A stretch of DNA of 64,000 nt from Bacteroidales bacterium UBA1800 (GTDB lineage Bacteria > Bacteroidota > Bacteroidia > Bacteroidales > VadinHA17), in assembly GCA_002319915.1 (NCBI GenBank), contig DCFQ01000021.1, positions 47,643-111,642 of the forward strand, written 5' to 3'. Positions 59-16,996 of this stretch are shown here, in pieces (the first letter of the stretch is position 1; each line of letters starts with the position of its first letter). Both the position numbers and the translations under genes were made by a program. A model generated the notes under the pieces. The model saw nothing but the letters and a program-made list of their open reading frames with translations. It was not told the DNA's origin and made no database searches.

Positions 59-1267
59 TCATCTTTGGGTTCTTATTTTATTTCCGGCGATGGCGTAGTA
101 CATAATGTAGAGGTAGGCTGGCAAACAAACACAATAAGCAACCTGATGAGAAGCCATGTCAGCAACATAACCAAACAGAAGCGGAAGGAAAGCTCCCCCG
201 ATTATCCCTGTTACAAGTAATGCAGATCCCATTTTTGTAAACTTGCCAAGATCAGCGATAGCAAGAGGCCATATCGCAGGCCACATTAATGCATTGGCTA
301 AGCCCAGGACTGCCACAAGATAGATTGATATCGTCACAGGCAACAAAAGTATCATGAGGGTGACCAGTACACCTGAGATTGTGCATAACAGTAAAGCGAC
401 ACTCTGACTTAAGTATTTCGGGATAAATAATACTCCTGAGGTATAACCCAGGACCATACCTGCTGATACTAGCCAGACATAATTATGGGGAGAAGGCAAA
501 TTCAGAATCGAAGCATAATCGTTTATTGTACCAAGAGCAATATATTCGACGCCCACATCAAAAAAAATAGCCACAGCTCCCAGAATAAGATGAGGGAATT
601 GAAAGATGTTTGTTTTCGATGCCGCATAAGATGAAACAACAGATGCCTGCTCATTTTCATCTTCACCAATAGCTTTTATTTCAGGCAGAGGCGTAAAGTA
701 ATAAATACCTGACATTACAGCCATAACACCTGATATAATATAGAAAGGCAGGATTGTGTCCTGAATATTGACATTCGAAAGATCCATGAAAACAGCGAGT
801 ATCAGTGAGGCAAAGGCAAAGAAAGTCTTACTACATATTCCCATGAGGGCAATACGGCTTGCTGCACTTTCGGGAGGACCGATGATTGTAACGTATGTAT
901 TAACAGCTCCGGTCAGCAAAGTTTGTCCCATTCCGCTGATGAACAGTGCCACGAGTAAAAGAGGGAAGCTTGTGATTCTGGCCGATGGGGCAATCAAATA
1001 AAAACCTGCTGCCATAATGAGAAAGGCAATAGCCATTCCTCCCTTGTAACCAACCTTCTTAATAATTGCTCCTGAAGGTACACCAAATACTGCAAAAGAC
1101 AGGAAGGTAGCTGTCATGACCAGGTAAGACATAGTAATTGAAATGTGAAAAGCTTCTTTTACGAAAGGAATGAAGAATGCATTTATTCCAAGGGCAAAAC
1201 CAAGCACTGCAAACATTGACCCGGTTAATATCATTGGAATCACTAAGGTTTTTCGTCCGGTGGTCAT
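59..1267 (-). CDS. MFS sugar:H+ symporter (FucP / glucose-galactose transporter-like)
   Basis: 402-aa ORF that is hydrophobic throughout, about 12 helices by eye. The N-terminal region (LGFALGINAFFIPFVKEAF, KKVGYKGG loop) resembles the FucP/GluP MFS subfamily from memory. It is the last visible gene of the minus-strand locus. Confidence 0.8.
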   Translation of the reverse strand: MTTGRKTLVIPMILTGSMFAVLGFALGINAFFIPFVKEAFHISITMSYLVMTATFLSFAVFGVPSGAIIKKVGYKGGMAIAFLIMAAGFYLIAPSARITSFPLLLVALFISGMGQTLLTGAVNTYVTIIGPPESAASRIALMGICSKTFFAFASLILAVFMDLSNVNIQDTILPFYIISGVMAVMSGIYYFTPLPEIKAIGEDENEQASVVSSYAASKTNIFQFPHLILGAVAIFFDVGVEYIALGTINDYASILNLPSPHNYVWLVSAGMVLGYTSGVLFIPKYLSQSVALLLCTISGVLVTLMILLLPVTISIYLVAVLGLANALMWPAIWPLAIADLGKFTKMGSALLVTGIIGGAFLPLLFGYVADMASHQVAYCVCLPAYLYIMYYAIAGNKIRTQR

Positions 1268-1326
1268 GATTTGGTTAAGATTTTAATTGGTAAAAACTTT
1301 AATTACAATAAGCAAATCAGTTGAAA

Positions 1327-2274
1327 CTAATTATCTGTGTTGATCTTATACTCAGTAATTATATTTACACTAAGCTCTTTACCAGGGGAAAGGATATCCG
1401 GGCAACCACCACAAGCCTCAATTTCCATAAAACCCGTAGGATCGCAATAAATGCTCAGCTTTATACCCTTTTCTGAAGGAATCTGGTCAGGCGGGGCATC
1501 AGCTATATCAATATATTTCTGCCCCGGAGGCAGAGTGCCTGTATACCTCTTTACCTTCAAATTGTCAAAATATTTGTATTCAATCCATGGCACATTTTCT
1601 CCCATGCCGAGTTGGAAACGAAAATAAGTATTGGTATTAACAATATATTTATCGTTTGATATACCACGCATGGACAAACTGGAGCTGTATAAATCACGAA
1701 TATCTTCTTCTGTCTTGTAAGGCATAATTACTTCACAACCTTTACCGGTATCTAACTGACATAATGACCAGGGAGCAAGCCTGAAATCTTTTATGAACAA
1801 CGTTTTTACCCCGATATATCTGATCATTTCTGTTACATTCTGTACGAGACAGTTCTCATTGTACTCTACTTCAATATGACGCTCAAATTCGCACGGGATA
1901 CCCAGCTGACGATTATTCACCAGATCTATTTCTGCCTTTATTACCGTTCTTTTTTCATTTTGTCCTGTGATTTCCCAGACAGCTCCTGTAATTTCCGGTG
2001 GCACTCTCCAGTTGCCTGTCGCATATTCATAGCCAAAACAGGTACCTTCAGGAGCAGGCCACAAAACATCGCCTCCGGGGTTCCGATATGCCGTCTTGTT
2101 ACTTTTGTTCAGTACGGATGAAGGAACAACCCTGTTAAGTACTTTATTATTCAAAACGGCAAAAAGTCTCCCTTCCATATCCAGGGCTGCTATAATGCCA
2201 TTTTCCAGGGTGCCGGTTAAGTTGGACCGACATTTAGCCTGATCTAACAACTCCAATAATTCCTGTCCTGTCAT
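1327..2274 (-). CDS. hypothetical protein, no signal peptide (possibly mutarotase-like/DUF; function unknown)
   Basis: 315-aa ORF packed tightly between the creatininase-like gene and the MFS gene. The motif NPGGDVLWPAPEG recalls uncharacterised carbohydrate-locus DUFs, but I cannot name the family securely. Confidence 0.5.
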   Translation of the reverse strand: MTGQELLELLDQAKCRSNLTGTLENGIIAALDMEGRLFAVLNNKVLNRVVPSSVLNKSNKTAYRNPGGDVLWPAPEGTCFGYEYATGNWRVPPEITGAVWEITGQNEKRTVIKAEIDLVNNRQLGIPCEFERHIEVEYNENCLVQNVTEMIRYIGVKTLFIKDFRLAPWSLCQLDTGKGCEVIMPYKTEEDIRDLYSSSLSMRGISNDKYIVNTNTYFRFQLGMGENVPWIEYKYFDNLKVKRYTGTLPPGQKYIDIADAPPDQIPSEKGIKLSIYCDPTGFMEIEACGGCPDILSPGKELSVNIITEYKINTDN

Positions 2275-2277
2275 AGT

Positions 2278-3018
2278 TTATATACCCATGGCTTTCTTCA
2301 TATCGCGAAGAATGACAGACATAGCTCGGTCGCCATAATCTTTTGAAGCATCTTTCGCACTCCTGGAGAACCAGTTTTTGTCAATAAAGCGTTTCATGTC
2401 AACACCCTCAGGGCAGAATGACATCATCAGTGATGTCTCCTGTTTACCAGCATGGTCAATTGGAAATTGAGCTTGTGCATCCGCACTCATAAACGGACAG
2501 ATGTGTATCCAGTTAAAGGGATCAGTACCAGTTTCAAGTTCATCGTAATAAGCAGATGAAGACTCATCTCCCCACCATCCATCACCGCGTTGGCGCTCAA
2601 TGAAGTCAAATATCTCCTGGCGTGCTGCAAGCTTAAAAGCTAGATCTGTAGGCATTCCATTTGAGAAGTTTTCACTCTGATGATGTACAAACACATAAAT
2701 ATTACGGAACCCAATGCGCAAAAGATTATAGAATAGCTGACGCGCAAATTGATTCAGCACCTCTGAATCAACATGTATACCGCCATTGTGTTCCGGAGCT
2801 GCAACAGCATAAGTTCCGGATCCATAATAAAAAGGCGGCATTATTACCAGTGGCATCTCTTTCTCCAGAAATTCCAGAGCTCTGACTACAAGCAGAGAAT
2901 CTACCCCGGGTGTGAGATGTTCACTATGATATTCAAGCACTCCCAAAGCCATGACTACCGGAGTGTTTTTATCAATCGCATCCCTGATCTGATCAGGGAA
3001 CATCAATTCATAATGCAT
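2278..3018 (-). CDS. creatininase-family amidohydrolase
   Basis: 246 aa. The N-terminal LGVLEYHSEHLTPGVDSLL matches the creatininase-family metal-binding motif (GxxEqHGpHLPlgtD). It lies 3 nt from the next gene. Confidence 0.7.
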   Translation of the reverse strand: MHYELMFPDQIRDAIDKNTPVVMALGVLEYHSEHLTPGVDSLLVVRALEFLEKEMPLVIMPPFYYGSGTYAVAAPEHNGGIHVDSEVLNQFARQLFYNLLRIGFRNIYVFVHHQSENFSNGMPTDLAFKLAARQEIFDFIERQRGDGWWGDESSSAYYDELETGTDPFNWIHICPFMSADAQAQFPIDHAGKQETSLMMSFCPEGVDMKRFIDKNWFSRSAKDASKDYGDRAMSVILRDMKKAMGI

Positions 3019-3081
3019 AATTATTTTTTTTCATCATTTTTAATGTGGTGCAGGTATTCGAAAGTGCCATCACTTCAGAGA

Positions 3082-15995: not shown

Positions 15996-16013
15996 TTTAA
16001 TTTATCTGTATCA

Positions 16014-16040
16014 AAGACGTTTCAAAACTGAAAGTCCACA
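16014..16040 (-). promoter_or_regulatory. candidate ECF-type promoter (TGTGG-N16-CGTCTT) upstream of fecR-like gene
   Basis: The minus strand reads tgtggactttcagttttgaaacgtctt. The 13-mer ttgaaacgtcttt is identical to the one at 16996..17008. Confidence 0.3.
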
Positions 16041-16130
16041 ACCAAAAATTCAGAAACATCTTAAATATCCGTACTTTGATATTTATTTTATATATCCTGT
16101 GATAATAAGTCTTATGAACAACTGGTAGCG

Positions 16131-16832
16131 TCAAATACTATGACCAGTCATCATGGTAAATACTAACCCGATTACGAGAACCAGGTACTCTCTTAAAAGA
16201 ATGCGAAGCAGCTTTAATGCTCTGCCTATACGTACTTCCACAGTTCTGACGGAGATTCCTAATATTCTTGAAATTTCATTATACTTAAGTCCTTCGTACC
16301 TGTTCATTCGAAATACATGGGATACTTCATTCGGGAGGGAGTTAAGTGCTTTCTCTATTTGCTGCTGTAGCTCCGAATGTAAAATATAACCTTCTGCATC
16401 ACGCACATATTTGATAGAGGTTTCGGTTATATAATCATAATGATCTTGAATGATTCTTTTGTGCCGATACCAATCTATGCACTTATTCTGAATTGTCTTA
16501 AGAAGGTAGGATCTGAGTGAGACATTTATATCAATGATTTCGCGGTCTTCCCAGAGTTTCACAAAAGTATCCTGCACTATTTCTTCAGCATCATTGAGAT
16601 TATTAAAAAACCTTGCAGCAAACATCACAAGGTCTTTATAATAGGCTGTAAAAATATCGGAAAATGCTATAGAATCACCAACTTTAAATTTGGAAATCAA
16701 TACTTTCTCAACTATTGGGATGGGCCTTGCCACTTCAGTATTACTGCAACTAACCAAAGGTACAAAATCATCCAAGTACTTTGATCTAGAACTGTTTTCC
16801 TCTTTAACAAATATTGGAAAATCCTCTATCAT
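16131..16832 (-). CDS. RNA polymerase ECF sigma-70 factor
   Basis: Region 2 (EEIVQDTFVKLWE, DWYRHKR) and region 4 HTH (YEGLKYNEISRILGISVRTVEVRIGRA) are present. The start is uncertain: the ORF is open to 16901, and I chose M24. Either start leaves an unusually long N-terminal extension. Confidence 0.85.
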   Translation of the reverse strand: MIEDFPIFVKEENSSRSKYLDDFVPLVSCSNTEVARPIPIVEKVLISKFKVGDSIAFSDIFTAYYKDLVMFAARFFNNLNDAEEIVQDTFVKLWEDREIIDINVSLRSYLLKTIQNKCIDWYRHKRIIQDHYDYITETSIKYVRDAEGYILHSELQQQIEKALNSLPNEVSHVFRMNRYEGLKYNEISRILGISVRTVEVRIGRALKLLRILLREYLVLVIGLVFTMMTGHSI

Positions 16833-16996
16833 AATCCGTAGACAAAAAGTGAAATGCCAATCCAGGATCAGCATTTCACAGAAAAAAGCTAACCTAACCA
16901 AATTCCCCTCGACGAACTACTTTCTAAATCCAAAATACAATGTTAATAACTCCAGGTTATTCGGTTCATTTGAATCATGAATAAGCATTCAAGCTA

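Follow-up and report, generated by a model that had tools for sequence, protein, structure and literature searches.

The subject of the present analysis is a stretch of DNA of 64,000 nucleotides, hereafter called the window, from Bacteroidales bacterium UBA1800 (assembly GCA_002319915.1, contig DCFQ01000021.1, positions 47,643–111,642 of the forward strand), the first part of which, from position 59 to position 16901, is filled by eleven co-oriented minus-strand open reading frames (ORFs), as seen from ORF calling together with Pfam and NCBIfam searches. Judged from the sequence, these genes represent approximately the upstream four-fifths of a polysaccharide utilization locus (PUL) of ~21 kb, the regulatory and uptake module of which is a textbook one and the cargo of which is new, consisting of a widespread, unstudied cytoplasmic cassette that is here uniquely combined with two flavoenzymes predicted to be exported by the twin-arginine translocation (Tat) pathway. 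The reading we favour, and hold as a whole with somewhat more belief than doubt, is centred on the cassette: the locus would serve the utilization of a complex glycan containing N-acetylhexosamine and fucose, and this utilization would involve a de-N-acylation in the cytoplasm. The features of the locus are, beginning from its regulatory end, as follows:

16131..16733 (minus strand): extracytoplasmic function (ECF) sigma factor of the Bacteroidetes type; Sigma70_r2/r4_2 domains and TIGR02985, 162.5 bits (cut-off 126.4)
14928..15995 (minus strand): FecR-type anti-sigma factor; FecR and FecR_C domains
11402..14746 (minus strand): SusC-like TonB-dependent transporter of 1114 aa; STN, CarboxypepD_reg, Plug and beta-barrel
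9730..11415 (minus strand): SusD-like lipoprotein; SusD_RagB and SusD-like_3
8057..9613 (minus strand): FADa, PF12831 flavoprotein with the twin-arginine leader KRREFVK; FAD_oxidored, 393.6 bits (cut-off 27)
6266..7834 (minus strand): FADb, PF12831 flavoprotein with the twin-arginine leader TRRGFLK; FAD_oxidored, 402 bits (same cut-off)
5779..6265 (minus strand): AT-rich spacer of 487 bp, 28% GC, holding one copy of a 139-bp element (6044-6182)
4285..5778 (minus strand): α-L-fucosidase of the glycoside hydrolase (GH) family GH29 with a signal peptide; Alpha_L_fucos (PF01120), 246.4 bits (threshold 25.2), and Fucosidase_C (PF16757), 43 bits
3082..4245 (minus strand): cytoplasmic M24 ‘pita-bread’ protein; Creatinase_N and Peptidase_M24, di-metal site absent
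2278..3018 (minus strand): cytoplasmic creatininase-fold amidohydrolase, a proposed de-N-acylase; PF02633, 83.6 bits (threshold 31.3)
1327..2274 (minus strand): cytoplasmic DUF6786-like protein of 315 aa; weak DUF6786 match (29 bits), galactose-mutarotase-like beta-sandwich
59..1267 (minus strand): sugar-type importer of the major facilitator superfamily (MFS), NagP/GluP/FucP-like; MFS_1
1..58 (minus strand): start of the spacer leading to the esterase and U749 genes located off the window, known from the near-identical contigs L001, L002 and L004

Concerning the cassette, 80 related genome loci were retrieved and scored by tblastn and ORF clustering, 42 of them being accompanied by adequate flanking DNA. 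The unit conserved among them is composed of the M24-like protein, a deacylase, the DUF6786-like (mutarotase-like) protein and a transporter. Among the 42 loci, the M24 gene is present in 39 and a deacylase gene likewise in 39, the latter being of the creatininase type in 31 and of the carbohydrate esterase family 4 (CE4) type in eight; an adjacent MFS or RhaT gene is found in 34, and at least one of the proteins U749, U800/U995 and GHL6, described below, is encoded in 37. RhaT takes the place of the MFS protein in ten loci, all outside the Bacteroidales. The 315-aa protein has, moreover, hundreds of metagenome matches at 65–76% identity. The carriers cover Bacteroidales and Prolixibacteraceae, with Mariniphaga sediminis, Petrimonas sulfuriphila and Gaoshiqia hydrogeniformans as cultured examples, as well as Lentisphaeria/Victivallales, Planctomycetes, Kiritimatiellia/Verrucomicrobia, Spirochaetes and Sphingobacteriales, and they inhabit wetlands, fens and anaerobic digesters.

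It should be pointed out here that a GH29 gene was found in eight of the 80 loci and a FAD_oxidored gene, at the thresholds used, in one (L018), so that the GH29 and the flavoenzymes are lineage-specific, optional additions; what loci of this type have in common at their core is the cassette. An original prediction for this DNA, made without database searches, had put the flavoenzymes and the fucosidase at the heart of the pathway; that part of it received no support, the core being formed by the cassette and the unannotated probable glycosidases. SusC/SusD genes precede the cassette in eight or nine loci, the sigma/FecR pair occurring once more, in L089. The recurrent neighbours comprise SGSH-type sulfatases, an Acyl_transf_3 (HGSNAT-like) membrane protein, GH27, GH3, GH127 and a ROK kinase, and five or six related cassette loci contain genes for a Tat-exported GFO/IDH/MocA oxidoreductase together with a PF06439 3-keto-disaccharide hydrolase. 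A GFO/IDH/MocA gene, the class that accompanies the cassette elsewhere in the Tat-exported form along with the 3-keto-disaccharide hydrolase, is also present within the window (28861-30213, minus strand), ~12 kb from the PUL.

The strongest evidence for the role of the creatininase-fold protein is a non-orthologous displacement. In 15 non-Bacteroidales loci its gene is missing and a leaderless CE4 gene (Polysacc_deac_1) stands exactly in its place, between the M24 and DUF6786 genes (e.g. L076:9084-10004 and L089:8748-9668); because of this displacement the creatininase-fold protein is proposed, by analogy, to be a de-N-acylase acting on a carbohydrate, and the cleavage of an amide bond in the cytoplasm, as already envisaged in the original prediction, has gained in plausibility. 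With regard to the protein itself, the residues E29/H31/D40, H113, H189 and E194 align with E34/H36/D45, H120, H178 and E183 of creatininase, the counterpart of creatininase E122 being ambiguous (S115 or E116). Since the counterparts of the metal and catalytic residues are retained, the protein is probably an active metal amidohydrolase, its substrate being other than creatinine; the score against the creatininase equivalog TIGR04448 is 59.5 bits against a cut-off of 235.

The M24 protein gives its best sequence matches in the PDB with Xaa-Pro dipeptidases (prolidases) and aminopeptidase P (E = 6e-20 to 1e-16). The metal ligands D209/D220/H284/E313/E327 of the prolidase from P. furiosus correspond, however, to N247/S258/H322/D351/E364, and in all 59 of 59 M24 homologues from the related loci the positions 247 (N/G) and 258 (S/V/A) are never occupied by aspartate, whereas H322, E330, D351 and E364 are invariant; in addition, the substrate-contacting histidine of prolidase aligns with Arg232. 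As both aspartate positions are substituted without exception, the assignment as a canonical di-metal M24 peptidase was rejected. Among NCBIfam models the best match is DoeA, with 69.6 bits against a cut-off of 613, and the creatinase 1CHM is matched at E = 1.5e-6; the protein was thus rejected also as an equivalog of creatinase or ectoine hydrolase, to which it is similar just in its fold and in having lost the metal site. It is accordingly taken for a pita-bread enzyme outside the canonical type, akin to creatinase and ectoine hydrolase.

For the third member of the cassette, the 315-aa protein, the AlphaFold2 model (predicted local distance difference test score, pLDDT, of 84.8) has Slr1438 and GalM-like proteins as its top Foldseek matches (3k25, 3dcd, 4bze and 3mwx; E ~1e-7 to 1e-8, template modelling (TM) scores 0.47–0.60). 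The original prediction had left this protein as an unknown one, and it indeed falls into no characterized pathway; what can now be added is the weak DUF6786 match and the galactose-mutarotase-like fold. Its sequence has no match in the PDB and none with Pfam Aldose_epim, a TTE1925-mutarotase match being seen only at E = 1.4e-4. Many aspartate, glutamate, arginine, tyrosine and tryptophan residues are invariant in the family, and no histidine is invariant or near-invariant among 39 homologues. The catalytic His/Glu pair is not there, so that the candidate function of a canonical galactose mutarotase was rejected, and the model points to a sugar-binding enzyme that is not a classical mutarotase. 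None of the M24, creatininase-fold and 315-aa proteins was found to have a signal peptide.

The adjacent MFS protein, described originally as FucP-like, is confirmed as a transporter of the sugar type, its resemblance being closer to NagP and GluP (265 bits against a cut-off of 625 and 193.9 against 202.55, the latter just below) than to FucP (TIGR00885, 116.6 against 280.4; NF007524, 93.9 against 427), with all three below their cut-offs. An N-acetylated and/or 6-deoxy sugar is hinted at by the replacement of this FucP/NagP-like protein by RhaT elsewhere. The view that the M24, creatininase and 315-aa genes lie outside characterized pathways is borne out by their scores, every NCBIfam equivalog being matched far under its cut-off.

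The cargo of the PUL is larger than the window could reveal, because the window edge cuts the locus. Three wetland metagenome contigs (L001, L002 and L004) match the window at 99.99–100% identity over up to 11.3 kb (L001 covering positions 1-11267 of the window) and add, past the edge, a gene for a 663-aa esterase, a gene for a lipoprotein of 749 aa (U749), i.e. the second one after the MFS gene, and then a convergent gene. The 663-aa protein is secreted and combines an α/β-hydrolase, seen as a weak Peptidase_S9-like match, with an SGNH/GDSL esterase domain. The GH29 is the only glycosidase recognizable by Pfam within the window, in agreement with what the original prediction said of the carbohydrate-active enzymes (CAZymes) there. 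The related statement that the cargo consists mostly of proteins other than glycoside hydrolases holds for the window in this sense; it owes something, however, both to the cut at the window edge and to the incompleteness of the databases, as illustrated by U749 and by the pair U800/U995.

U749 itself has no match in Pfam, NCBIfam or, by sequence, the PDB, and it has more than 1,200 homologues, with no Pfam domain in any of the 120 best matches listed. Longer paralogues carry a carbohydrate-binding module of the family CBM11, seen in 8 of 24 members with E-values down to 2.8e-7, two of 24 members exhibit a weak Melibiase match (E = 0.024), and the best PDB profile matches, at a non-significant E of 0.1, are a GH36-type α-galactosidase and a galactosaminidase. 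For U800/U995, distant paralogues of each other (~21% identity), the profile matches the GH20 lacto-N-biosidase 4H04 from Bifidobacterium at E = 2.6e-5, but over no more than its N-terminal domain and the first part of the barrel; weak GH20b matches were obtained in seven of 28 members, and the matches to a GH67N-type N-terminal domain are weak, too. Each of U800, U995 and U749 is 60–80% identical across many metagenome-assembled genomes (MAGs) of Bacteroidales, recurs beside the cassette (loci L013-L092) and has no Pfam domain, the examples of these families being L048:3182-5581, L048:14835-17825 and L035:12315-14576. In view of these matches, U749 and U800/U995 probably represent carbohydrate-active enzymes of new or strongly diverged families. 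The remaining protein of this set, GHL6, has 680 aa and contains GHL6 and GH42M-like domains.

The two flavoproteins, FADa and FADb, are 72% identical and contain the GxGxxG motif in the form VVVCGGGPAG; near their N-terminus a twin-arginine motif is followed by a hydrophobic region (TRRGFLKNVLSATAGL and KRREFVKNAFSITAGL), from which export via the Tat pathway is inferred, with the Pfam TAT_signal model giving no match on either of them. A Tat leader is seen in only a minority of the PF12831 subfamily, most members being leaderless and, by their sequences, cytoplasmic. The non-Rossmann part of the family alignment contains many invariant arginine, histidine and aspartate residues. The sequence search in the PDB matched just the Rossmann segment and retrieved no informative homologue, and the AlphaFold2 model of FADb (pLDDT 85, residues 1-70 disordered) yielded, with Foldseek against the PDB, only generic flavoproteins with two dinucleotide-binding domains (TM scores ≤0.40).

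The surroundings of the homologues tell more. Of the closest ones (58–68% identical), one set is situated among five GH141-like beta-helix genes and a GH20 gene, and others among four GH28 genes together with DUF5060, GH5 and FGE-sulfatase-domain genes, the last-mentioned flanking the closest homologues on other metagenome contigs. A leaderless homologue from a Firmicute is the last gene of an operon for a sugar ATP-binding cassette (ABC) transporter, and yet another one lies between a CBM-containing protein and a GH95, with a GH130 nearby. In a sister PUL of a Bacteroidales MAG from a fen (L018), a PF12831 protein of 625 aa (4053-5930) occupies the same slot between SusD and GH29; with 26% identity, this protein falls into another subfamily, and ~185 residues at its N-terminus form an additional domain. 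In that locus, a GH27 α-galactosidase or α-N-acetylgalactosaminidase follows U749 (L018:14564-16900). Because the close homologues occur consistently in glycan loci, the PF12831 subfamily is concluded to be a probable glycan-locus accessory enzyme that would act on soluble sugars or oligosaccharides. As the most economical guess, prompted by the analogous Tat-exported GFO/IDH/MocA systems that accompany the cassette in other loci, the enzyme would oxidize a hydroxyl group or an amine of a sugar and so enable a later cleavage.

FADa and FADb arose by a tandem duplication in which a non-coding element of 139 bp was copied along. Its two copies, at 6044-6182 after FADb and at 7921-8059 after FADa, are 91% identical, the identity of the FAD coding DNA being lower (~76%). 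The element has no match in Rfam, its folding z-scores of ~0 to +0.9 give no signal of a fold, and the 487-bp spacer that holds the copy after FADb contains neither a terminator nor a –7 box; with no Rfam match and no significant fold, its reading as a structured RNA was dropped. Neither the rest of the window nor the retrieved loci that were checked (L011-L094) contain a further copy. The element could serve as a conserved site of regulation or processing, or its conservation could be the outcome of a recent gene conversion.

As far as the regulatory and uptake module is concerned, the ECF sigma factor, the FecR-type anti-sigma factor and the STN domain on SusC (29.6 bits against the Pfam cut-off of 28.4) together define a PUL with trans-envelope signalling, and the adjacent susC- and susD-like genes are followed on the same strand by the GH29 and the other genes, as expected for a PUL; all the families named originally, for this module and for the cargo alike, were matched, on minus-strand ORFs lying where they had been placed. 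The sigma ORF as called begins with TTG at 16901, with ~56–67 spurious N-terminal codons in the segment 16701-16901. It is over-called: its N-terminal extension harbours a –7 box of the Bacteroidetes type (TAccTTTG, position 16762) as well as a hairpin resembling a terminator (16879-16849), and the true start is probably GTG at 16733 or TTG at 16700.

The genes are separated by 135 bp (sigma–FecR) and 181 bp (FecR–SusC), followed by an overlap of 14 bp (SusC–SusD) and gaps of 116 bp (SusD–FADa), 222 bp (FADa–FADb), 487 bp (FADb–GH29), 39 bp (GH29–M24), 63 bp (M24–creatininase), 3 bp (creatininase–315 aa) and 59 bp (315 aa–MFS). No minus-strand terminator-like hairpin was found in any gap from susD to the MFS gene, nor was a TAnnTTTG box, the sole one in the intergenic regions scanned being that preceding the sigma gene. 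A scan for promoters of the sigma-70 type was uninformative (50 matches against ~60 expected). The lack of terminators and of housekeeping –7 boxes in the internal gaps fits a single, presumably sigma-dependent unit from susC onward, and the alternative that the genes following susD are separately transcribed housekeeping genes, which would have spoken against the original prediction, thus received no support.

Taken together, the original observation is confirmed and its interpretation is supported in part. In the mechanism we favour, the one centred on the cassette, a fragment of the glycan would bind to the STN-bearing SusC, upon which FecR would free the ECF sigma factor for the expression of susC and all the downstream genes, probably as one unit. 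The oligosaccharide brought in by SusC/D would be trimmed in the periplasm or at the surface by the GH29, removing α-L-fucose, by the esterase, by U749 as a probable new glycosidase and by the flavoenzymes, the two of which, being exported by Tat, would probably modify a sugar residue oxidatively and so permit its release. The MFS protein would take up the released mono- or disaccharide, most likely an N-acylated, possibly 6-deoxy, amino sugar, from which the creatininase-fold enzyme would strip the N-acyl group in the cytoplasm; the M24-like enzyme lacking the metal site would carry out a second hydrolysis, on a C–N bond, as in creatinase or ectoine hydrolase, and the mutarotase-fold protein would bind or convert the sugar. 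The neighbours of the cassette (GH20-like, GH27, GH29, an SGSH-type sulfatase and the HGSNAT-like protein) suggest a fucosylated, partly sulfated, hexosamine-rich heteroglycan as the substrate.

Several points weigh against this mechanism. No enzyme of the cassette has a characterized close relative. The putative deacetylase role is derived from the gene displacement, and the predicted Tat export of the flavoproteins from a sequence motif. Hardly any other cassette locus has the flavoenzymes, which makes their link to the substrate of the cassette uncertain, and the GH-like status of U749 is weak in view of its E-values (0.1 for the PDB profile matches; 0.024 for Melibiase in two of 24 members). 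Finally, the 487-bp gap before the GH29 gene could conceal an internal promoter of a type invisible to the scans.

Three other explanations have to be weighed against the cassette-centred one. The closest to the original prediction, being essentially its model, makes the flavoenzymes the main depolymerizing activity: sugars would be oxidized in the periplasm and the bond then broken by elimination or hydrolysis, as a flavin counterpart of the route via 3-keto-glycosides that depends on nicotinamide adenine dinucleotide (NAD), and the cassette would only salvage the product. The FAD genes do stand directly after susD, where other loci have GHL6, a different PF12831 subfamily holds the same position in L018, close homologues fill the ‘glycosidase slots’ in glycan loci and occur in a sugar ABC operon, the oxidoreductase and 3-keto-disaccharide hydrolase genes in the five or six cassette loci indicate that oxidative glycan chemistry occurs around the cassette, and many arginine, histidine and aspartate residues outside the Rossmann part are invariant. 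We consider this explanation improbable, since just one of the 80 cassette loci has a FAD homologue at the thresholds used, no structural neighbour of the generic FADb fold points to a sugar oxidase, the locus lacks a gene for a periplasmic electron acceptor, and most members of the PF12831 family are leaderless and cytoplasmic.

If the target were, instead, a glycopeptide or glycoprotein, the M24 protein would be a peptidase similar to prolidase or aminopeptidase P, and the creatininase-fold protein a peptidyl amidase like MftE, both finishing fucosylated glycopeptide stubs; the best PDB matches of the M24 protein, the weak match to the peptidase MftE within the creatininase family and the weak Peptidase_S9 match of the off-window esterase would be in line with it. 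The loss of both aspartate ligands throughout the cassette M24 proteins, the arginine in place of the substrate-contacting histidine, the presence of a mutarotase-fold protein and a sugar transporter (MFS or RhaT) as partners, and the replacement of the creatininase-fold protein by a member of a carbohydrate esterase family make it distinctly unlikely, and the peptide-linked substrate cut by the M24 enzyme, which the original prediction had entertained, is unlikely as well. Still more remote is a pathway for a small nitrogenous molecule, of the creatinine/creatine/sarcosine or the ectoine type, lying beside the PUL by chance. The names of the families do recall classical creatinine degradation, and DoeA/DoeB likewise combine an M24 hydrolase with a deacylase, but the scores given above are far too low, the flavoenzymes are of PF12831 and not of the DAO/sarcosine-oxidase type and would be exported while the hydrolases are cytoplasmic, synteny ties the cassette, in several phyla, to SusC/D, GH29, GHL6 and GH20-like genes, and the gap of 39 bp between the GH29 and M24 genes contains no terminator; membership in the creatinine or ectoine pathway was therefore rejected on both the equivalog scores and the context.

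Returning to the mechanism centred on the cassette, a bolder proposal may be attached to it, more doubtful than probable: the cassette with U749 and U800/U995 could form an undescribed pathway, widespread across phyla, by which an N-acylated amino sugar (possibly 6-deoxy or N-modified) is broken down after its release from a glycan abundant in the environment, and the PF12831 pair could belong to a novel class of flavin-dependent enzymes that process glycans in the periplasm and take the place of a glycosidase.

With regard to the rest of the window, the GC content of the PUL is ~37% and that of the adjoining glycerol genes 51–55%, which suggests different origins or a strong compositional heterogeneity. 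These genes form a glycerol module (18844-22815, minus strand) encoding an MIP channel, an FGGY glycerol kinase and a DAO-type glycerol-3-phosphate dehydrogenase. The window contains also a second SusC/SusD pair (36147-39314 and 34265-36208), directly upstream of which lies a gene (39866-41395, minus strand) for a 509-aa fusion of a NapC/NirT tetrahaem cytochrome c and an FGE-sulfatase (SUMF1-like) domain. Two further genes seem to be unrelated to the PUL, i.e. that for a protein sorted by the type IX secretion system (CHU_C) with a Lamin Tail Domain (55109-57484, minus strand) and that for a DUF6057 membrane protein (32218-34026, plus strand).

Complex glycans are degraded in the Bacteroidota chiefly by way of PULs, and most new CAZyme families have been traced to such loci. 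The present locus and its relatives bring together at least four families without a characterized member (the DUF6786-like proteins, the metal-less M24 proteins, U749 and U800/U995), and the locus ties PF12831, a large family, to glycan loci. In the open-access literature, nothing relevant was found on DUF6786 and TTE1925 or on a creatininase together with SusC/SusD, no functional study of the PF12831 family was found, and the cassette pathway was not met with either. Solving the locus would probably yield a new sugar catabolic pathway and at least one new GH or oxidative CAZyme family, of relevance to the carbon turnover in anoxic sediments; it represents a well-defined entry point to both, and cultured carriers exist.

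In comparison with known systems, the 315-aa protein shares the beta-sandwich fold with the galactose mutarotase superfamily, and differs from it in having no conserved histidine and in the silence of the Aldose_epim model. Creatinine degradation by creatininase, creatinase and sarcosine oxidase likewise combines the PF02633 fold, the PF01321 and PF00557 folds and flavoproteins, here found in one locus; the scores of the present proteins are, however, far under the cut-offs, their flavoproteins belong to another family and another compartment, and the genes are syntenic with glycan genes. In ectoine catabolism, the M24 creatinase-like hydrolase DoeA is paired with the deacetylase DoeB (PMC3187862), which sets a precedent for the two successive hydrolyses proposed for the cassette. 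The cassette resembles this arrangement in encoding a non-peptidase M24 hydrolase beside an N-deacylase, as the latter is proposed here; unlike in DoeA/DoeB, the deacylase is of the creatininase fold or of CE4, a sugar transporter and a mutarotase-fold protein accompany the pair, and the genes are placed in a PUL.

Concerning the flavoenzymes, an oxidative cleavage of glycosides in the periplasm, involving Tat-exported GFO/IDH/MocA dehydrogenases and partners that process 3-keto-glycosides, reportedly exists, Nasseri and co-workers being said to have described it in Nature in 2024. The likeness consists in a cofactor-loaded oxidoreductase, predicted to be exported by Tat, inside a glycan locus; the difference is that the enzymes here are FAD-dependent ones of PF12831 and are accompanied by no lyase or hydratase partner in the locus. 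As for the locus as a whole, the trans-envelope signalling through an STN-bearing SusC is that of the PULs of Bacteroides governed by ECF-sigma/anti-sigma pairs, described for the host O-glycan loci of B. thetaiotaomicron. The locus studied here agrees with them in the ECF sigma factor, the FecR-type anti-sigma factor, the STN-bearing SusC, the adjacent SusD and the enzymes following on the same strand. It departs from them in having one classified GH, the rest of its cargo being the flavoenzymes, the esterase, the lipoprotein free of Pfam domains and the cassette of three enzymes with its own MFS transporter, all of them having no characterized orthologues.

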